DNA of 64,000 nt, taken from NCBI RefSeq assembly GCF_902713615.1, contig NC_052152.1, positions 65,568,818 to 65,632,817 of the forward strand. The letters run 5' to 3'. This DNA comes from Scyliorhinus canicula (taxonomy: Eukaryota). This document shows positions 5,118 to 47,085 of this stretch, one piece after another; within the stretch, counting starts at the first letter, position 1; each line of letters begins with the position of its first letter. Below the pieces are notes generated by a model. It did not search any database and had not been told where the DNA came from. It saw only the letters and a program-made list of their open reading frames with translations. Made by a program: the position numbers and the translations under genes.

Positions 5118-5391
5118 TGTGGTGAATGTGTAACCACTATAATTCACACTGTATATTACTGTGTCCCTGTGGGCTCCATCTGTGAGCCATTGTGCGGCTC
5201 TGCCCACAGGGGGAGATGAAGAGCATGTGCAGGGCTCCGCCCAGGGCTTCGCCCCCATCAGGAAGTATAAGTGCTGCGGTCCTGCGAGTCCGCCCTCAGT
5301 TCAGCATAGTCGCAGGCAGGCTCAGTTGTAAGCCGATTAAAGCCACAGTTTACTTCAACTCGTGTCTCTGAGTGAATTGATGGTCGCATCA
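5118..5391 (+). mobile_element. Solo LTR, Gypsy family A
   Basis: tgtggtgaatg...gatggtcgcatca (TG..CA); 5-bp flanks gctat/gctgt; homologous to the LTRs of 41828-45937; has TATA-like gtataag and attaaa. Confidence 0.9.
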
Positions 5392-19932: not shown

Positions 19933-21851
19933 CTACGTCTCGTTGTTCCCCCAGATGGTACAGCAGAACTGGAGGTGGACTCCTGTGATTCCTGCCCTGT
20001 GACTAGGGTCCCCTTTGGTGGCCATTTCCTGGGGCGGCCCGGCCTGGATGGGCCAGGCTGCACCTCGGGCAATTGGGATGACGTGGTGCCACCCTGTTCT
20101 GCCCGCTGCCCACCAGATGTACCAGAGACGGTAGGGGGGAGGGGGGGTGGAGTCCGAGGTGGCACGGGGTTCTGGCACCCCCCCTGCAGGGAGAGCCGGA
20201 ATGGGCCCCAGCACCTCCTCCACCCCCGAGGTGCCCGGTGGCCCCCGGGGCTCTCCACGGGATGGGGGTGCGAGCGGATCCAGCAGCCGGGGCACCACCA
20301 TCACCTGGCGCTGCCAGTCCTGGAGGCCCGCGCTGATATCGAACAGGGTCTGGACATTCGCAGCCATGGAGCTCAGGGAGTTCGCCATCCCTGTCTGGCT
20401 CTATACAACGCTGTCCATCACCTGGGCAATTACGCTGATGCTCTCAGCGATGGCCTGCTGTGACCGCGCCAGGATGTTGAGCACCTCTGCGATGTTCAGC
20501 TGGCTCTGGCTCATGGCTGCCTATGAGATGGCAGCCCTGTCCTGGGCCGCAGAGGCCGCGTGTACAGATAGACCGAGGCCATGCAAACTCAGTCCCATGC
20601 CCGACACCGTCGCCACCACTGCTGACACTACCCGTGCGGTGTTGGCCTGTGTGGCTCTCATGACCGGCACCATTTCCTGCTCCTGGACTCGGATGCCCCT
20701 GCACTTGCGTCTGCAGGTGCTGGAAACCGGCCGTCACATTCTTACGCCCCTGGGTCCCTGACTGCATCGGGTCTATGGATGGGCGGGGGAACTCCAGGGA
20801 CCGGGGACCCGCCTGGGTGGCAGGTGTTTGCCGGGGCTGGGCTGCCCTCCAACCGTCTGGCCCCTCAGCTGCTCCTACCTCCACCTGCTGTACCGGAGCG
20901 GCTGTGTGGTGCACACCAGTTAGTTTCCCAAAAGCCTCACAACTAAAATGGCCAACCGAGGTGAGAGTACCTGCAGTGGCAGTGGGTGCAGAGGACAGCT
21001 ATGATGCAACCTCAGTGTCTTCATCGGACCTGCAGTCGGGGGTCCTAAGGGGAGGGGGCTGAGGGTAAAGGGTTGAGGGGAGAGTGCTGAGAGGAGAGTG
21101 CTGAGGGGAAAGGGCTGAAGGGAAAGGGCTGAGGGGAGAGTGCTGAGGGGAGAGTGCTGAGGGGAGAGTGCTGAGGGGAGAGTGCTGAGGGGAGATGGCT
21201 GAGGAGGGAGGACTGAGGAGGGAGGGCTGAGGAGAGAATGCTGAGGGGAGAATGCTGAGGGGAGAATGCTGAGGGGAATGTCTTCGGGCACACCAGTTAT
21301 GTCCAGTGCCCTCTGCTTGTGCACGGTGAGGGGCCGCAAGTCAGGTCCACCCCCTCCGGTTCGGACACGCTTTCGTTGGTTATGGGCGCTCTACTCCTTG
21401 GGGGGGGGGAGGGATGATAGTCATTGTTAGGCGGTCCGATGCATGCGATTGGATCTATGTTGGCATTGGTGCACAGAGCACACGGCCAACGCGGCTTGCA
21501 TGGGTGGCTGCAGCCAAGCGGGTCATGGCTGTGGGTGTACCGTCCCCCTGGGGAGGGGGGTCATACATTTGGGGGGTGGGGGGGGTTAGTGCCATGGGCA
21601 CATTGCTGTGTACTCACCCTGGCTGCCCTCAGTAGGTTGTTGAGCTTTTTGTGACACTGCTTGCCAGTCCTGGGTGTCAACATGATGGCACTGATGGCTG
21701 CACCCACCTCTCCCCACAGACGCCGGGCCATGTTGGGTGGGACCGTCTGGCCGGGTCCAGGGCACAGACACCCCCTCCTCTCCTGGAGGGCATCCAGGAG
21801 CGTCTCCAGGTCGTGGTCGGTGAACCGGGGTGCTGCTCGACGTGGCACCAT
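19933..21851 (-). pseudogene. Harbinger ORF2: spliced Myb/SANT-like DNA-binding protein gene, disrupted
   Basis: Exon 21618-21851 MVPRRAAPRFTDHDLETLLD...WGEVGAAIS..LTPRTGKQCHKKLNNLLRAAR with donor AGG|GTGAGT; exon from 21396 E*SAHNQRKRVRTGGG (TAG at 21391-21393); long 3' exon from ~21045 with an Ala/Ser/Gln-rich region, frameshifted. Confidence 0.85.
21058..21280. repeat. ~14-bp purine-rich minisatellite (ctgaggggagagtg)n, about 15 units
   Basis: Direct inspection; the minus-strand unit is CA(C/T)TCTCCCCTCAG. Confidence 0.9.
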
Positions 21852-29266: not shown

Positions 29267-29547
29267 TGTGGCGAATGTATAAGCACCTATTACTTCACCA
29301 GTATACTGTGTTGCATTATGCCATGCCATTAACCCTGTGGGCTCCATCTATGGGCCACTGTATGGCTTCACCCACAGGGGGAGATGTGGAGCATGTACGG
29401 GCTCCGCCCCTTATAGGAAGTATAAGAGCAGCAGACCTGCGGGACCGCCTTCAGTAATGTACCAGTTGCAAGTGGGCAAAGTTGTAAGCTGATTAAAACC
29501 ACTGTTTACTTCGACTCGAGTCTCCGAGTGAATTGATGGTCGCACCA
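29267..29547 (+). mobile_element. Solo LTR, Gypsy family A
   Basis: tgtggcgaatg...gatggtcgcacca; perfect 5-bp TSD tacat; contains gtataag and taagctgattaaa. Confidence 0.9.
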
Positions 29548-29935
29548 TACATCAAAGCAGCACTTTAGTGGGGTACAGCAATCGGGAACTAATTGAGTGA
29601 TTCTATGAAAGAGCCAGCAATGTCATGGTGGGCATGGCTTCCTTCCATGTTGCAACATTAGAATTATAGAATAAGGAAAATCATTAGGTAGATTACATTT
29701 TAAATGGGGAGAGACTGAAAATAGCCGCATACAGAGATGTTCCTTGTTCACGCATAACAGACTGTTAACATGCTGGTGCAGCAAGCAATTGGGAAAGGTA
29801 TGTCCATTGTTTATGACAAATGGAATAGAGTAAAAGAATAAAGAAGTCTTCCTGCAATTATATAAGACCTTGGTGGGGGCAGAACTACACATAAAGTATT
29901 CCATGCTGCATTGGTTTCTATATCTAAGAAATAAT

Positions 29936-34519: not shown

Positions 34520-37500
34520 TTATTTCCAGGGCTGGAGGGTGGGTGAGTGCCACGGAGAGGGGATACCTGGAGAGATGGGCCAAGGATTTGGAGGTCGGCG
34601 GCATTACGCAGGAAAGTGACAGAGGCATCACACTAGTTGTGCACAAAGGTGTTTATTGTGTTTTCCAATTCCCCACCCTCCTGATGGTGCTGCCCACCTG
34701 TACCCCCAGCTCCCACACCGCCTACCTACCCCCCACCTCCTCCCCCGATGCCCTTAGTGACCCTTGATGTGCTTAGCCCTCCTAACTCTACCACTACATC
34801 AATGTGTGTTCCCAGGATGCGCATCTGAGGTGGAGGCAACCAGCTTCTTACCACATCCCGTAGCCATCAATGCCCTGGCAGGCATCCTCTGTGGGTTCTG
34901 AGGCTGGAGGGCCCTGGCTGACTTGTCACTGGCACATGCACAGAAGTGCCGCCCTGCCCTGTGTGCCAACTCTGAGACGCAGCCTCATCAGAGGGGTGGA
35001 CCTCAGGGAGCTGGTGGCCACCGACACCACTCCATGGGATTAGTCCAGGTTGGCAGCCGACGCCCCCTCCACTCGATTGGTGCCCATAGGGCCCTGGTAT
35101 AAGCTCTGGCAGCCCCTGCATCATCTGGCTTTGCCAGCCCTGGCGGTTCCCCATGGTCTGCACCATCGTGTTGATGCTCTCGGCTATGCTACTCGGTGAT
35201 TGGTCCATGCTCTGCAGCATCTTGGCAATTCCCACCTGTAACTGGGACATGCTCCACAGCGCCTCAACCATTCCCATCTGAGAGCGGTACATGTCCTGCA
35301 AAGTCGCATCAAGGGCAGCCTGTTACTGGGTTACATTCCCCAGTGAGTCGAACATTCTGCCGAGACCCTCAGCTATGGCCGTCCCAGACTGAGCGATGCC
35401 TTGGACACCTTTGCTAATGGTGCCGATGTCGTGCACCAGGCTCTCCACTGCGGTCACCACCCTAGCAGTGTTGGCCTCGGTGCCACGCATGACCGGTGAC
35501 AGCTCCAGTGCCCGTAGCCTCTGGGACTCCTCCAAGTGGCAATGGATCTGTTGGGGAGACACTGATATCTCCCTCTGAATGTCCCGGCTGCACCCTAATG
35601 TCTCCATCAGCTCTGGGATGACCTCTTCCACAGGCTCAGCATCAGGTTGGAACATAGCTGGGTCATGGATCCAGCAGATCTCCGACTGCTGTCTCGCCTG
35701 GGGATTCCTGCCTCCACCTGATGTACATCAGCAGCAGTGTGGTGCTCACCAGATTGTGCCCCAGAAGCTTGGCCACTAACATTTCTCACTGAGGTGCATG
35801 TATTGGCGCTGGTGGAGGGTGTAATGTGACTATTCCTGATGCAACCATCAAATCACTCAAAGACACGAGAAGAAGCAAACCGAGGTTTTAATCAGTTTAG
35901 AACAGTGCCTGCCTGTGACTGGTACAATACTGTGAACTGCCGACAGGTCAACTGCTCTTTATACTCCCTTTCAAGGGGAGGGGCCATGGGCGGACCCCGT
36001 ATATGCCCCAACATATCCCCCTGTGGGTGAAGCCACGCAATGGCCCATAGGTGGAGCCCACAAGGTCAACAACAGAACATAGCTGTAACACAATGGCAGA
36101 ACATGATAATAATACACCGGTGAATTACTAGTACTATACATTCACCCCCTGTTAAAAAAGTGAAGTCCGGCTGGGGTGATGGGCTCATACGTTCAGCCGG
36201 TCCGGTGCACGGATTGTGCGCTGCGATCGCCGAAGCACTGGTGTTTCTGTTGGTCCGGTTGTCGGGCTCATCCGTGCTGGCATCGGAAGTGGGGCCGGTG
36301 CGGGCACAGGCGTGGACTCTGGGAGCGTCTCTTCTGGAGCTTCATTTGGACCGGTGTGGCAGGCGGGAGGGAGCGCGGGAGCCATATAGGGGTGGAGGCG
36401 CTGGACATGGTAGGTTGGGCGGCTTTTAGTGGGGGGCTGAGATGGTGGTGGTGGTGATGGAACCTGTGGGCGCCAGGTCACGGAGGGAGATGGTATCTTG
36501 TCGGCCATCTGGGTGTTTGACATAAGCATACTGGGGGTTAGAGTGCAGGAGCTGGACCCTCTCTACTAGCGGGTCGGTCTTATGGCTCCTGATGTGTTTT
36601 CTGAGGAGGACTGGTCCCGGTATCTTCAGCCAGGATGGAAGCGAGGCCCCTGAGGTAGCTCCCCTAGGGAAAGCAAACAAGCGGTCATGAGGAGTCTCGT
36701 TCGTGGCCGTGAAAAGGAGGGACTTGATAGAGTGGAGCGCTTCGGGGAGGACCTCCTGCCAGTGAGAAACTGGGAGATTCCTGGACCGCAGGGTCAGTAG
36801 GACGGTCTTCCTGACCGTCGCGTTCTCCCTCTCCACCTGCCCGTTTCCCCTGGGGTTATAACTGGTAGTCCTGCTTGAGGCAATGCCCTTACTGAGCAGG
36901 TACTGATGCAGTTCGTAGCTCATGACCGAGCCCCGGTCGCTGTGGACATAACTGGGGAAACCAAACAGGGTGAAGACACTATTCAGGGCTCTAATGACAG
37001 GGGACGTAGTCATATCAGGGCAGTGGATTGCAAATGGGAAGCGGGAGAACTCATCTATGATGTTGAGGAAATATGTATTGCAGTTATTGGAGGGGAGGGG
37101 CCCTTTGAAATCGATACTGAGGCGTTCAAAGGGCCAGGATGCCTTTACCAGGTGGGCCTTATCCGGTCGACAGAAGTGTGGTTTACACACGGCACAGATT
37201 TGGCAGACCCTGGTCATAGTTCTGACCTCGGTGGAGTAAGGCAGGTTGCGGGCCTTGATTTAATGGACGAGCCAGGTGACCCCTGGGTGGCAGAGGTCAT
37301 CGTGGGTAACCCGAAGCCGGTCACCTTGCGCGCTGGCGCATGTGCTGCGGGACAGGGCATCTGGGGGCTCGTTGAGCTTCCCAGGACGATATACAATATC
37401 GTAGTTATAGGTGGAGAGTTTGATCCTCCACCTCAAGATCTTATCGTTCTTGATTTTACCCCGCTGCGTATTGTCGAACATGAAGGCTACCAATCGTTGG

Positions 37501-39400
37501 TCGGTGACAAGTGTAAACCTCATACCCGCGAGGTAGTGCGTCCAGTGCCGCACGGCTTCCACGGTGGCTTGGGCTCCTTTTTCGACTGAGGAGTGTCAAA
37601 TTTCCGAGGTGGTGAGGGTGTGCGAAAAGAACGCTTACCGGTCTGCCTGCTTGGTTGAGGGTGGCAGCGAGGGCGTCCTCTGATGCGTCGCTCTCCACCT
37701 GAAAGGGGACGGACACGTCCACCGCGCGCATTGCGGCTTTGGCGATGTCCGCCTTGATGCAGCTGAAGGCCTAGCGGGCCTCAGTTGCCAGTGGCTAGAT
37801 GGTGGCCTTGATTAGTGGCGGCCCCAGTTGGTCGAGCGTGGCGGGCAGTGAGGAAGATGGCGTCCAAGATGGCGGCCCCCATGGATCGCACGTGGCCGGC
37901 TGCGTAGGGAAGGATGGCCAAGATGGCGGCACCTGTGCATCGCACGTGCTATGAGGGCTGGAATATGGCCGCCCCCACTGATAGCACAAGGCTGATGATG
38001 CGTCTGCAAGGGGCGGAGTCGGCAGACACGCTGTCACACTGCGGGGTCTGCGGGCCTGTGAGTCTGAGGATCGGGCCTGTGAGCTCCAGTTCTTAGACCT
38101 GGCCAGGCAGACTTTGGCGAAATGTCCTTTTCTCCCGCAGCTGCTGCCGTTCGCGTTGCGGGCCGGGCAGTACTGTTGGGATTGTTGAGACCTGCTGCAA
38201 AAATAGCAGGGTAGCCTCCCATGATGGGCGGTCGGCTGCGCGGCGCAGGCCTGGGGTAGTCTTTGGTCGGGGGACCATGAGGGGGTCGCGTAGTCAGCCG
38301 GGAACGTGGTAAGGCTCTGAAACGTAACTTCCATCGAGATGGCTGACTTTACCGTGTCATCCAGGTCCTGGGCCCCCTTTTAGAGCAAGCGCTGTCTCAC
38401 ATAATTCGACCGGACTCCCGCCACGTCGACATCTCGGATGGCGAGTTCCATGTTTTAAGTGGCTATAATGGCCTGGGAATTACAGTTGCATGCTAGTGCT
38501 TTGAGGTTGCGTAGGTAGTCATCTAGCGACTCCCCGGGGCGCTGGCAGCGAGTGGTGAAGATGTGTCGCGCGTAGACCTCGTTCATGGGCCGTACGTAGA
38601 GGCCTTCGAGCATCACGAGGGCGTCTGCATAGGAGGAGGCCTCACCGAGCTGAACAGAAATGTAATGGCTCACCCGTGCGTGGAGGAGGCTCAGTTTCTG
38701 TTCATTGGTGACGGAAGGTGTGGAAGAGGCAGCGAGATAGGCCTTGAAGCATCGAAGCCAGTGTGAAAAAATTTATTTTGCCTCCGCAGCCTGCGGATCG
38801 AGTTCCAATCGATCAGGTTTGAGGGCTGATTCCATAGTTGTATTTAAGCTGATTAAATTGATGCGACCATCAAATCACTCAAAGACACGAGAAGAAGCAA
38901 ACCGAGGTTTTAATCAGTTTAGAACAATGCCTGCCTGCGACTAGTACAATACTGTGAACTGCCTACAGGTCAACTGCTCTTTATACTTCCTTTCAAGGGG
39001 GGGAGACATAGGCGGAGCCCATGCATGCCCCCAACATATCCCTCTGTGGGTGAAGCCACACACTGGCCCATAGGTGGAGCCCACAAGGTCAACAACATAA
39101 CATAGCTGTAACACAATGGCAGAACATGATACTAACACACTGGTTAATTACTAGTACTATACATTCACCACAATTACAGTGGCATCCTCAGAGCTCTCTT
39201 CTGAGGTGATCCCCGTGGGAGACTGGAGAGGGGACAACACGGGATGAGCCGGCGCCATTGGCTGGAGGAGGATGGAAATGCGGGCAGTGGGATGGATTGA
39301 TCAGTCAGTAAGGCAATAGCAATTCACATTTGACAGATCCTCCGGGTGGGGTCCAGTGGTTCCTCACTGTTCTGTTTGGTCTTTTATACCTTATGAAGGA
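34520..39400 (-). mobile_element. Second Harbinger ORF2 remnant (34520-35836 and 39173-39400) interrupted by Gypsy provirus A1
   Basis: ORF 35323-35655 LSPVMRGTEANTARVVTAV matches PVMRATQANTARVV in the 17245 element; an upstream acceptor-like tract lies at ~39270-39290. Confidence 0.7.
35837..39172 (-). mobile_element. Ty3/Gypsy provirus A1, deleted for protease and RT
   Basis: LTRs 38859-39172 (5') and 35837-~36146 (3'); TSD attcc/attac; gag with CSSCGRKGHFAKVC knuckle joined directly to RNase H (VESDAS...WTHYL) and integrase (LSIDFKG...DRG...ERENA); PPT aacagggggtgaa. Confidence 0.93.
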
Positions 39401-41827: not shown

Positions 41828-44800
41828 TGATGCGACCATGGGGCAGCACGGTGGCACATTGGTTAGCATTGCTGCCTACGGCGCTGAGGACCCGGGTTTG
41901 AATCCCGACCCTGGGTCACTGTCTGTGTGGAGTTTGCACATTCTCCCCGTGCCTGCGTGGGTTTCACCCCCACAACCCAAAGATCTGCAGGTTAGGTGGG
42001 TTGGTCACGTTAAATTGCCCCTTATTTGGAAAAAAAATAATTGGGTACTTTAAATTTAAAATAAATGATGCGACCATCAATTCATTCAGAGACACGAGTT
42101 GAAGTAAACTGTGGCTTTAATCGGCTTACAACTGAGCCTGCCTGCGACTGTGCTGACCTGAGGGCGAACTTGAAGGACCGCAGACCTTATACTTCCTGCT
42201 GGGGGCGGAGCCAATGGCGGAGCCCTGTACATGCTCCTCATCTCCCCCTGTGGGCAGAGCCGCGCAACGGCTCACAGATGGAGCCCACAGGGACACAGTA
42301 ATATACACTGTGAATTTATAGTGGTTACACATTCACCACATTCACCCCCTGTTAAAAAATCAAGTCCGGCGGGGGTGATGGGTCTACAAGTTCAGTCGAT
42401 CCGGCGCCCGAATCGTGCGTTGAGACCAACGAAGCACTGGAGTTGCAGCCGTTTCGGATGGCTGTGGAAGGATGTTCGGTGCGAGTCCGAGAGTGGACTC
42501 CGGGGGTGGTTCTTCCAGAGCTTTGTTCCTGCGGACCGGTGTGACGGGTGGAAGGGGGCACAGGAAGCAAGTAGGTGCAGGGGTGCAGGGCATGGGAGGT
42601 CGGGCGGGGTGTAGTGTGGGAGGTACATCGGCATTACTGGTAGTGGTAGTAGATCCTGCGGGTGCCAGGTCCTGGAGGGAAACGGTGTCCTGTCGGCCAT
42701 CGGGGTGTTCGACAAACGCGTAGTGGGGGTTTGAGTGCAGGAGCAGGACCCTCTCTACCAGGGGATCTGTCTTATGTGTCCGGACGTGTTTCCGAAGGAG
42801 GACAGGGCCCGGTGTCCTCAACCAGGATGGAAGCGAGGCCCCCGTGGTAGTGCCCCTAGGGAAGACAAATAATCGATCATGAGGAGTCTGGTTTGTGGCC
42901 GTACAAAGGAGGGACCTAATTGCATGGAGAGCATAGGGGAGGACCTCCTGCCAGTGGGAGGTCGGGAGATTCCTGGACCGTAGGGTCAATAGGACGTTGC
43001 GTTCTCCCCCTCCACCTGCCCGTTCCCCCCAAAGTTATTGTTGGTAGTCCTGCTCGAGGCGATGCCCTTGCCGAGCAGGTACTGACGCAGTTTGTCGCTC
43101 ATGAAGGACGAACCACTGTCACTGTGGACGTAGCTGGGGAAACCGAACAGGGTGAAGACACTGTGCAGGGCTCTGATGACTGTATGGGAGGTCATATCGG
43201 GGCTTGGGATGGCAAACGGGAAACGGGAGAACTCATCTATAATATTGAGAAAGTAGATGTTACGGTTGTTCGAAGGGAGGGGCCCTTTGAAATCAATACC
43301 CAGTCATTTAAAGGGCCGGGATGCCTTTACCAGGTGGGCCTTGTCTGGTCTATAGAAGTGCGGTTTACACTCCGCGCAGATTGGGCAATTCTTGGTGACG
43401 GCTTTAACCTCCTCGGTGAAGAAAGGCAGATTGCGGGTCTTGATTTAGTGGGCGAGCCGGGTGACCCGCGGGTGGCAGAGGTCATTGTGGATAGCCTGTA
43501 GTCGGTCATCTTGCGCGCTGTCGCATGTGCCGCGGGACAGGGCATCTGGGGGCTCATTGAGCTTCCCAGGACGATATACGATATCATAATTATAGGTGGA
43601 GAGTTCGATCCTCCATCACAAGATTTTGTCATTCTTGATTTTGCCCCGCTGCGAGTTGTCAAACATAAAGGCAACCGATCTCTGGTCAGTGATGAGGGTA
43701 AACCTCCTACCAGTGAGGTAGTGCCTCCAGTGCCATACGGCTTCCACAATGACTTGGGCTTCCTTTTTGACTGAGGAGTGTCGAAGTTCCGAAGCGGAGA
43801 GGGTCCGGGAAAAGAACGCTACTGGCCTACCTGCCTGGTTCAGAGTGGCAGCGTGAGTGACCTCTGAGGCGTCGCTCTCCACCTGGAATGAGATGGACTC
43901 ATCTACCGGCCGCATGGCGGCTTTGCCGATGTCTAACGCAGTTGAAGGCCTGGCGAGCCTCGGCTGACAGTGGGAAGAGAGTGGCCTTAAATAGTGGGCG
44001 GACTTTGTCCGCACACTGGGGGACCCACTGGGCATAGTATGAAAAAATTCCGAGGCACCTCTTGAGGGCCTTGGAACAGTGAAGGAGAGGGAGTTGTAAG
44101 AGAGGGCGCATACGGTCAGGGTCGGGTCCTAGGACCACGTTTTCCATGACGTAGCCGAGGTTGGCAAGTCTAGTTGTGCGGAAACCGCATTTCTTCTTAT
44201 TATAGGTGAGATTCAGTTTTTGGGCGGTTTGGAGAAATTGGTGAAGGTGGGCGTTGTGGTCCTGCTGGTCATGGCCGCAGATGGTGACGTTATCCAAGTA
44301 CGGAAATGTGGCCCGCAGCCCGTACTGGTCCACCATTCAGTCCATTGCTCGTTGGAACACCGAAACCCCGTTCGTGATGCCAAAGGGAACCTGGAGGAAA
44401 TGGAAAAGGCGGCCGTCTGCCTCGAACGCTGTGTAGTGGCAGTCCTCCAGGCGGATTGGGAGCTGGTGGTATGCAGACTTCAGATCCACCGTGGAGAATA
44501 TGTGGTACTGGCCGATCTGATTTACCATGTCTGCAATCCGAGGGAGCGGGTACGCATCAAGGAGCATGAACCGGTTAACGGTATGGCTGTAATCAACCAC
44601 CATCCGGAACTTTTCCCCGGTTGTGACGACCACCACCTGAGCTCTCCAAGGGCTGTTACTGGCCTCTATGACTCCTTCACGCAAAAGACGTCGGATTTCA
44701 GATCTGATAAACACCCTGTCCTGCAGGCTATACCTCCTGCTGCGAGTGGCCATTGGTTTGCAGTTGGCGGTGAGATTAGTGAAGAGTGGAAAGGGGTCGA

Positions 44801-45937
44801 TTTTCAGAGTTGCTAGACTACATATAGTGAGTGGGGGAAGGGGTCCGCCGAAGCTGAGTGTTAGGCTCCTGAGGTTGCACTGGAAATCCAGTCCTAGGAG
44901 GAGGGGCGCGCAGAGGTCTGGGAGCACATACAGCTTTTCGCCCGCAGCTGCTGCAGGCCACGTTGCGGGCCGGGCATTGTTGCCGGGGCTGTTGGGGCTG
45001 GCCGCAAAAGTGGCACGATAGCCCTCCGTGGTGGGCGGGTGGCCGCGCGGCGCAGGCCTGGGGCAGTCTCTGGTCGGGGGTCCACGATGGAGTCGCGTGA
45101 TCGGCTGGGAATGCGGTTATGCTTTTGAAAGCGTCCTCGTATTACTGTGTCCTCCAGGTCCTGGGCCCCTTTCTCGAGAAGACGCTGCCGCACATAACTG
45201 GATAGGACACCTGCAACATCAACATCTCGGACGGCGAGTTCCATGTGTTGGGAGGCTGTCACGGCCTGGAAGTTACATTCGAGTGCTAGGGCTTTAAGGT
45301 CACGCAGATAGTCTTCTAGTGACTCTGCAGGGCGCTGGCAGCGAGTTGTAAAGATGTGCCGCGCGTAGACTTCATTCACGGGCCGCACGTACAGGCGGTC
45401 GAGGATCACGAGAGCCTCAGTATAAGAGTCAGTTACATCAAGTTGAGTTGAAATACGATGGCTCACCTGTGCGTGGAGAAGACTGAGTTTCTATTCTTCT
45501 GTAACAGAGGAGGTAGTCGACGCAGCCAAGTAGGCCTTGAAGCACCGAAGCCAATGTAAAAAAAAATTCCTTAGCTTCTGCGGCCTGTGGATCGAGTTCC
45601 AGTCGGTCAGGTTTGAGGGCTGATTCCATAGTAGTTTTTAAGTTGATTAAATTGATGCGACCATCAATTCATTCAGAGCCACAAGATGAAGTAAACTGTG
45701 GCTTTAATTGACTTTAATCGGCTTACAACTGAGCCTGCCTGCGACTATGCTGAACTGAGGGCGGATTCGCATGACCACAGCACTTATACTTCCTGCTGGT
45801 GTCGGAGCCAAGGGCGGAGCCCTGTACATGCTCCTCATCTCCCCCTGTGGGCAGAGCCGCGCAACGGCTAACAGATGGAGTCCACAGGAACACAGTAATA
45901 TACAGTGTGAATTTATAGTGGTTACACATTCACCACA
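41828..45937 (-). mobile_element. Ty3/Gypsy provirus A2, deleted for the gag C-terminus and most of protease
   Basis: 5' LTR 45653-45937; 3' LTR 41828-42340 (SINE inside); perfect TSD cacaa (41823-41827, 45938-45942). gag start MESALKPDRLELDP (45629); RT (DAYPLPRI, DLKSAYHQ, VPFG, YLDN), RNase H, integrase; PPT 42341-42353; several frameshifts. Confidence 0.95.
41840..42063 (+). mobile_element. Short V-SINE inserted 12 bp inside the LTR edge
   Basis: Perfect 14-bp TSD aatgatgcgaccat (41826-41839, 42064-42077). Confidence 0.92.
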
Positions 45938-46035: not shown

Positions 46036-47085
46036 TGTCATGTGAGAGTACCTTTAAGAAATGGGTGTTTAAGAAATGTACCTTTAAGAAATGGGTGTTT
46101 AAGAAATGTACCTTTATGAAATGAGTGTGTATCAGTGATGTCAGAGTGTGGGTGGAGCTGGGCTCTCCGTCAGCTGTTTACTTTTGTTTTAGGCTGTTTG
46201 CTGCAGGGTGCATTTTAGTTTCGTTTTCAGAGCTGGATAGCTGCAGTCACAGCCAGAAGGTGTATGAGTCTCTCTCTCTGTAATCTAAAAAGTGTAAATT
46301 GATCCTTTGATGTTTTAAAACTAATAACTGCTCTCAGTAGTGACTTTAACCTGATGTGCTTCCCTTACAGGTTAAGTTTTTAAGTTTTATGGTTGTTAAA
46401 AGGAAAGCTTAAAGGATTACTTAGTGTTGTAGTCTTTGGGAGTTGTATTTGAATTAATAGTTGCTACATAGAACATAGAACATAGAACAGTACAGCACAG
46501 AACAGGCCCTTCGGCCCTCGATGTTGTGCCGAGCAATGATCACCCTACTCAAACCCACGTATCCACCCTATACCCGTAACCCAACAAACCCCCCAACCTT
46601 ACTTTTTTAAGGACACTACGGGCAATTTAGCATGGCCAATCCACCTAACCCACACATCTTTGGACTGTGGGAGGAAACCGGAGCACCCGGAGGAAACCCA
46701 CGCACACACGGGGAGGACGTGCAGACTCCGCACAGACAGTGACCTAGCCGGGAACTGAACCTGGGACCCTGGAGCTGTGAAGCATTTATGCTAACCACCA
46801 TGCTACCGTGCTGCCCCGTGCTACGATGTTCATGTCAGTGTTGGAAGTGTCTGTTCATCTCTCAAGTCTACACTAGCCAACACTTCAGTTCACTGTAATT
46901 TTTAAAAAGATTAACTTGAGTTCATAGAATAAACATTGTTTTGCTTTAAAAAATACTTTTCCATTTCTGCTGTACCACACCTGTAGAGTGGGCTGTGTGC
47001 TCCCCATACCACAATCTATCAAAAGTTGTGGGTCAGGTGAACTCCATGATACACTTTGGGATTCTCTAAACCCTGGCCCATAACA
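46036..47085 (+). mobile_element. Solo LTR, family B (with V-SINE insertion)
   Basis: tgtcatg...cataaca; 4-bp TSD ctca/ctta; internal ~28-bp tandem duplication (tacctttaagaaatgggtgtttaagaaatg). Confidence 0.85.
46467..46816 (-). mobile_element. HE1-like V-SINE with (TTCTATG)n tail
   Basis: catagaa x3 at the left end; tgcta flanks. Confidence 0.9.

Follow-up and report, generated by a model that had tools for sequence, protein, structure and literature searches.

Complementarity between the leader and the LTR in place of a tRNA primer site in a chromodomain-less Ty3/gypsy lineage of Scyliorhinus canicula

How is reverse transcription primed in an LTR retrotransposon that lacks the usual TGG primer-binding site (PBS) behind its 5' LTR? 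The question is raised by element A2, which lies on the minus strand of the 64,000-nucleotide stretch of the Scyliorhinus canicula genome analysed here (contig NC_052152.1; hereafter the window). According to the first-pass annotation, no TGG follows the 5' LTR of A2. A 13-mer at this position (45651-45639) was instead reported to be complementary at 11 of 13 positions to a segment of the LTR (45725-45713), and a perfect 8-bp hairpin (45650-45669) to sit astride the LTR/internal junction. All three statements hold, with exact coordinates. The parts of A2 are as follows.

42066-45937, minus strand: element A2, whole, with LTRs of about 275-285 bp
45653..45937, minus strand: 5' LTR (TGTGG...CATCA), 89% identical to the 3' LTR
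42066..42340, minus strand: 3' LTR
42341..42360, minus strand: polypurine tract, the same motif as in full-length family copies
42384..45629, minus strand: gag-pol, broken by stops and frameshifts, with Pfam matches to pieces of reverse transcriptase (RT) and RNase H
45783..45788, minus strand: TATA-like motif, first T at 45788
45754..45758, minus strand: Inr-like TCAGT, its A at 45756 being the putative transcription start
45713..45725, minus strand: LTR arm (predicted 3' part of a self-primer), ending in ATTAAA (45718-45713)
45703..45712, minus strand: 10-bp duplication private to the 5' LTR of A2, creating a second ATTAAA
45699..45702, minus strand: GCCA, an RCCW motif that follows the arm, candidate cut-site context, pushed away from the arm by the duplication in A2
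45650..45669, minus strand: LTR-end hairpin, U5-IR-like, six inner pairs compatible with the arm duplex
45639..45651, minus strand: primer-site arm, beginning 1 nt past the LTR end
45595..45611, minus strand: gag codons ~6-12, for which weak pairing with the first ~27 nt of the transcript is predicted

A2 is a decayed copy of a chromodomain-less Ty3/gypsy element. At its junction the LTR ends in CA at 45653 and is followed by a single A (45652) and then by the 13-mer, and both mismatches in the 13-bp duplex are C-A. The 10-bp duplication is missing from the 3' LTR and from 29 other family copies compared. With these two mismatches and the duplication, A2 is predicted to form an extended local hairpin, which ties up the beginning of the primer site, and not the arm duplex, whose probability is 0.03. 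The A2 copy itself therefore probably no longer forms the duplex, and the significance of the pairing rests with the family rather than with this copy. No target duplication was seen around A2. A SINE-like repeat, which we take to be a tRNA-derived SINE, occurs in many copies in the window (41837-42069, 46535-46820 and others), one of them adjoining the 3' LTR of A2.

The family is abundant, as each gag N-terminal query returned about 31,000 candidates in the 4.2-Gb genome. In the same genome, part of a protein recorded at NCBI for Scyliorhinus canicula is matched at 100%. A full-length relative encodes gag, protease, RT, RNase H and integrase in one open reading frame of 1286 aa, and the protease-RT-RNase H-integrase order, TG..CA LTRs, polypurine tract and target duplication are those of Ty3/gypsy elements, the best PDB match of the lineage being the Ty3 RT. 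In size the element presumably resembles Cigr-1. The LTR ends were set by 5-bp target duplications, which are exact in five of nine loci, present in a sixth on a combined reading and matched at 4 of 5 bp in two, with one locus not callable. The chromodomain that the first-pass annotation had found wanting is indeed lacking, since neither Chromo nor SH3_Tf2-1 was matched at E<=0.1 in five open reading frames, one of them reaching the end of the element. At E<=1e-40 over RT/RNase H, 1351 related proteins were retrieved (relatives being 57-82% identical over this region), and a gag search gave 1198 clusters, the source names (protein records only) including rays, sea cucumber, crinoid, tunicate, sea anemone, damselfly and whipworm. 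No relative was found among viral contigs and no match in Rfam, and a motif search of the supplements of PMC6238403 (four of five readable) found nothing. Genome-wide, only 71 Chromo-domain candidates were counted, with no integrase adjoining the 20 matches examined, and chromoviruses seem to be rare or absent in this shark. A further abundant LTR family of the shark (L366-L385) has its integrase before RT, an order that we take to be Gmr1-like; about 7000 SH3_Tf2-1 candidates were counted, and the SH3_Tf2-1 matches in the shark are such integrase-before-RT elements.

From 214 loci screened, 190 contained a gag start with upstream sequence and 186 of these a callable junction, the four missed comprising two point variants and two without an LTR end. 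The 13-mer that starts 1 nt after the LTR matches the arm of its own LTR at 11 or more of 13 positions in 171 of the 186 junctions (72 perfect). The loci include both window copies, a locus that entered twice and a false call (L052); the set is biased in that it consists of the best matches of five queries plus 60 further rows and was called by a junction rule favouring T-rich sites. The mean match to the own arm is 11.96 of 13, with 77% at 12 or more, while LTRs of other gag clusters reach 12 in only 6% of 3720 comparisons and shuffled sequences reach 11 in 0.3% of 3720. The architecture is equally regular: the spacer between LTR end and primer site is an A in 183 of 186 junctions and, among the 171 shark copies, the arm ends in ATTAAA (101) or AATAAA (54). 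An RCCW comes directly after the arm in 149 of them, and in 162 the distance between arm and LTR end is 46-50 nt. No junction of the 186 carries TGG after the LTR; a loss of a TGG site confined to the window copies was considered and is thereby ruled out, as the other family loci are also without it.

The pairing covaries. Hexamer and anti-hexamer agree or switch together in 142 of 144 canonical cases. In a set of natural leaders that represents each of 30 primer-site types once (three types without an arm at that distance being skipped), 94% of the arm cells are paired and eight of the 13 pairs show changes on both sides, as would be expected if the complementarity proposed from A2 were maintained across copies. 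The 19-pair structure holds 71 two-sided cells, a number reached by none of 500 shuffles, which ignore relatedness and were applied to a structure read from the same sequences. Pairing in the true register is 93%, versus 25-40% in slid registers. By position, in the 171 copies (preselected at 10 or more of 13), pairing amounts to 80-98% over positions 1-13, is partial to position 16 and falls to 1% at the base next to the LTR, giving the sharp edge that is expected of a primer end. One observation runs contrary to a simple primer-copying model. In the A2 subfamily, 67 of 75 exact-pattern genomic matches keep the primer-site base that mismatches the arm (C-A) and eight match it, as judged against the arm seen in the 30 loci in which subfamily arms were checked. 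The subfamily thus appears to have amplified with a fixed mismatch in the duplex, which suggests that the primer site is not efficiently re-copied from the arm in each cycle.

The same design recurs in distant relatives. In metagenomes, 406 loci were confirmed and 80 kept, 38 of which include the gag start; 26 of the 38, representing about 15 distinct families, match their own arm at 12 or more of 13 positions, a level reached by 2.6% of 1140 shuffles. Among the 12 misses, one stands at 11 of 13 and ten were re-examined: three of these have the arm (12-13 of 13), two more have it by eye and four are without a recognisable 5' LTR, with one not callable. The by-eye cases comprise one collapsed contig and L332, which has a 5-nt bulge near the LTR end, as does its twin L334. 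All 17 non-shark arms keep A at -3, A at -2 and C at +3, while 16 keep C at +2 and 15 keep G at -10, which, judged from these alignments, is more than pairing would require. Several distant arms end in GTTAAA, TTTAAA, TTAAAA or ACAAAT while keeping perfect duplexes, and three families with such a non-canonical arm hexamer (L261, L263, L268) have a separate canonical AATAAA or ATTAAA downstream in U5, which may uncouple priming from polyadenylation. In an RT tree of 45 rows (three short-RT loci dropped), rooted on an integrase-before-RT element and with no chromovirus, sharks and a ray fall in one starred group and the self-pairing trait is spread over the ingroup, with low deep support. Together with the covariation in the shark, these comparisons indicate that the self-pairing design is a real, clade-wide feature, and they lend strong support to the first-pass proposal that, where a tRNA would normally bind, the element pairs with its own LTR.

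Predicted folding, from the putative start to gag codon 15, is in line with the pairing counts. The mean duplex probability is 0.91 in 71 perfect copies and drops to 0.72 with one mismatch (69 copies) and to 0.39 with two (27 copies), so that the duplex envisaged for A2 is predicted in well-matched shark copies, though not in A2. In these well-matched copies the hexamer is unpaired with a probability of 0.07 in the 5' LTR context versus 0.70 in the 3' LTR context. Masking of the poly(A) signal at the 5' LTR only may thus be a second role of the duplex in sharks, a suggestion from the folds for which the odds are about even. Poly(A) occlusion as the core role appears unlikely, as the duplex persists in several distant families whose arm hexamer is non-canonical. 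The six inner pairs of the LTR-end hairpin (90.5% of cells paired, two of six with two-sided change) are compatible with the arm duplex, while the outer pairs of the 8-bp form compete with it across families. A helix between the 5' end of the transcript and gag codons is weakly supported by the models: own pairs give -19.8 kcal/mol, cross-family pairs -18.6, shuffled sequences -13.9 and a U3 control -16.3, with a mean z of -1.9 versus shuffles and no own-family specificity.

The position of the arm within the transcript is indicated by promoter-like motifs. The first-pass annotation placed an Inr-like A 32 nt after the first T of a TATA-like motif, a spacing that is seen in A2 (45788/45756) and recurs in the family. 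A TATA-like motif is present in the search range of 139 of 167 copies. In 135 of the 139 its first T is 75-77 nt upstream of the arm end, and in 123 a CA[GT]T follows whose A lies 31-32 nt after that T. These fixed distances would put the start about 44 nt above the end of the arm, and thus the arm inside the transcript. The suggestion that the arm is not at the extreme 5' end is hence favoured by the conserved spacing, while RNA reads gave no start: four raw RNA runs mapped to two family leaders showed neither a pile-up of starts or ends within the LTR nor any poly(A) tail close to the hexamer. Depth falls about 20-45 nt after the hexamer in one run only. For a younger family, sense reads (assuming usual stranding) cross the junction in two of the four runs, with a depth of 13-21 versus under 1.

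The right edge of an LTR is set by where minus-strand synthesis starts, and whatever pairs there is expected to be the primer. As the sequence at this edge tracks the family's own arm, family by family, the lineage very probably self-primes in some form. Common to the family are a complement of 13-16 bp that covaries and begins 1 nt after the LTR end, an unpaired RCCW following the arm, and the LTR-end hairpin. From this pattern we consider it probable that the primer is RNA from the element's own 5' end, cleaved in the 5' R just behind the hexamer. Transcription would start some 44 nt upstream of where the arm ends; the arm would then fold onto the primer site, and a nuclease (by analogy with Tf1, the element's RNase H) would cut after the hexamer and before RCCW, so that a capped piece of about 44 nt could act as the minus-strand primer. 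With its end at the hexamer, such a primer would leave the whole distance between cut and poly(A) site as the overlap for strand transfer. The arm duplex would also hide the poly(A) signal, at the 5' LTR but not at the 3' LTR. Both the cut and the primer are putative, and a 44-nt primer would require a stop or trimming step in plus-strand synthesis for which no candidate was recognised, which counts against this model.

Two other forms of self-priming were considered. Priming of the plain Tf1 type, in which the 5' end of the packaged RNA coincides with the arm or lies just above it and the primer measures only 13-18 nt, would fit with the pairing that reaches 15-16 bp in many families, with non-shark LTRs that show no obvious TATA by eye, and with a second TCAGTT in A2 whose A (45730) lies 5 nt above the arm. 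That motif is not conserved across families, however, while the TATA and Inr motifs at fixed distances put the start ~44 nt up, and we regard this form as unlikely. Quite unlikely, too, is priming from the 3' copy of R, where the 3' end of the genome would pair with the primer site, as a circle or between two RNAs, and be cut or trimmed to the hexamer with loss of the tail. The covariation does not distinguish between the two copies of the arm, and the one in the 3' R is predicted to be open, the value of 0.70 given above; yet the 5' arm, only about 50 nt away, is predicted to win in the perfect copies (0.91), and the available portions of the literature covered offered no precedent.

The remaining explanations assign the priming to another RNA or route. 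If the duplex were mainly a switch for poly(A) occlusion or packaging, with priming by some other RNA or route, it would be understandable that a canonical hexamer ends the arm in 155 of 171 shark copies, that a second hexamer in U5 was counted in none of the 171, and that masking is predicted for the 5' LTR alone. Left unexplained would be why the primer site starts at a constant 1 nt behind the LTR, and the perfect duplexes with non-canonical hexamers in distant families (three of which carry a further, canonical hexamer downstream) argue against a switch, which we hold to be very unlikely. Priming by a host tRNA fragment, e.g. a 5' piece of tRNA-Thr(AGU) whose end lies in the D-arm, with the LTR arm as its mimic or chaperone, appears more improbable still. 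Against a partial tRNA set, 3' ends match the primer site at no more than 7 of 13 positions, and the best internal matches reach 8-11 of 13 among 39 tRNA-like sequences of few isotypes (an incomplete set), the top ones being to the tRNA-Thr(AGU) D-arm. This D-arm resembles the arms of ATTAAA families at 10-11 of 13, and the distant arm L268 is identical (13/13) to a D-arm variant in the shark genome whose pattern has 33 genomic matches. In contrast, AATAAA families match tRNAs only at 8-10 of 13 and their own arm over up to 16 bp, and for all 17 non-shark primer-site types, as for 16 of the 18 found in the shark, the own arm pairs more strongly than the D-arm, a comparison made with D-arm variants other than the best-matching ones. 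Many arms together with the bases that follow them resemble the tRNA-Thr(AGU) D-arm (L091, L261, L262 and L268 versus L386-L389); such resemblance may be due to chance or history. A more far-reaching scenario is possible but rather doubtful, namely that an animal-wide gypsy lineage evolved self-priming independently of Tf1, with one helix that hides the 5' poly(A) signal and is cut at AAA|RCCW to free a long capped primer, the letters of the arm (G at -10, the TAAA end) being maybe a relic or mimic of the tRNA-Thr D-arm.

Self-priming of Tf1-type elements was reportedly described by Lin and Levin in 1998. In Tf1/Tf2 of Schizosaccharomyces pombe, Tj1 of S. japonicus and the Tf1/sushi and Tcn1 chromoviruses, the primer site is complementary to the element's own LTR RNA, there is no tRNA site, and a U5-IR-like hairpin lies next to the primer site in Tf1-type elements, according to the accessible parts of PMC7175516, PMC4600332 and PMC6317226. 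The shark lineage likewise has a primer site complementary to its own LTR, no TGG and a U5-IR-like hairpin; it differs in that the Tf1 primer consists of the first 11 nt of the RNA, while the shark arm would end ~44 nt from the start, and in that it carries neither a chromodomain nor SH3_Tf2-1. It thus appears to work like Tf1 self-priming and yet to stand, by the chromodomain test, outside the Tf1/sushi chromoviruses. Outside chromoviruses, self-priming has been predicted from LTR complementarity for the plant TAR-lineage Ty1/copia elements Houba and Osr-1, which belong to another superfamily and for which the portions of PMC6317226 available describe no link to a poly(A) signal. The fungal GalEa elements have no tRNA primer site and a conserved structure at that position, the Conserved Hairpin Site, but both of its arms are internal and its authors found no LTR complement (available portions of PMC5445492).

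In HIV-1 the 5' poly(A) signal is occluded by a hairpin. Its AAUAAA in the 5' R sits in this hairpin and must be silenced, for which U1 binding is needed (accessible parts of PMC5961354). The HIV-1 hairpin is local and priming uses a tRNA, whereas the shark duplex would join the arm to the primer site. In 171 copies of the shark lineage, the interval between the primer site and nt 60 of gag contained no GGTRAG site (cf. the U1 binding of HIV-1). The design is not described in the available portions of the literature searched (including PMC6317226, PMC3601003, PMC6934838, PMC6238403, PMC4600332, PMC7175516, PMC5443660, PMC5961354, PMC5445492, PMC2864245, PMC11042837, PMC13524379 and PMC8556966), nor do these describe gypsy self-priming outside the Tf1/sushi/Tcn1 chromoviruses; Repbase Reports and subscription journals lay outside this scope, and an earlier description is possible. 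If the interpretation is correct, this would be a second and very abundant self-priming lineage, with tens of thousands of gag candidates in one shark and more than 1300 related proteins across animals. Priming free of tRNA would then be common in animals and insensitive to silencing by tRNA fragments, and PBS-based annotation pipelines would miss such elements. The lineage would also offer a compact and testable answer to how a short LTR avoids polyadenylation at the 5' end.

Related sequences are found elsewhere in the window.

35837..39172, minus strand: element A1, internally deleted, of a sister family of A2
38921-38909 and 38857-38845, minus strand: LTR arm and primer site of A1, matching at 12 of 13 positions
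5119..5391, plus strand: solo LTR of the A2 family
29271..29548, plus strand: LTR of a third family, without an internal part after it, left end approximate

The arm duplex of A1 is predicted at a probability of 0.00. The window also holds a tandem array with a 14-nt period (21014-21307), which lies inside a GC-rich region at 17-22 kb with several long open frames.
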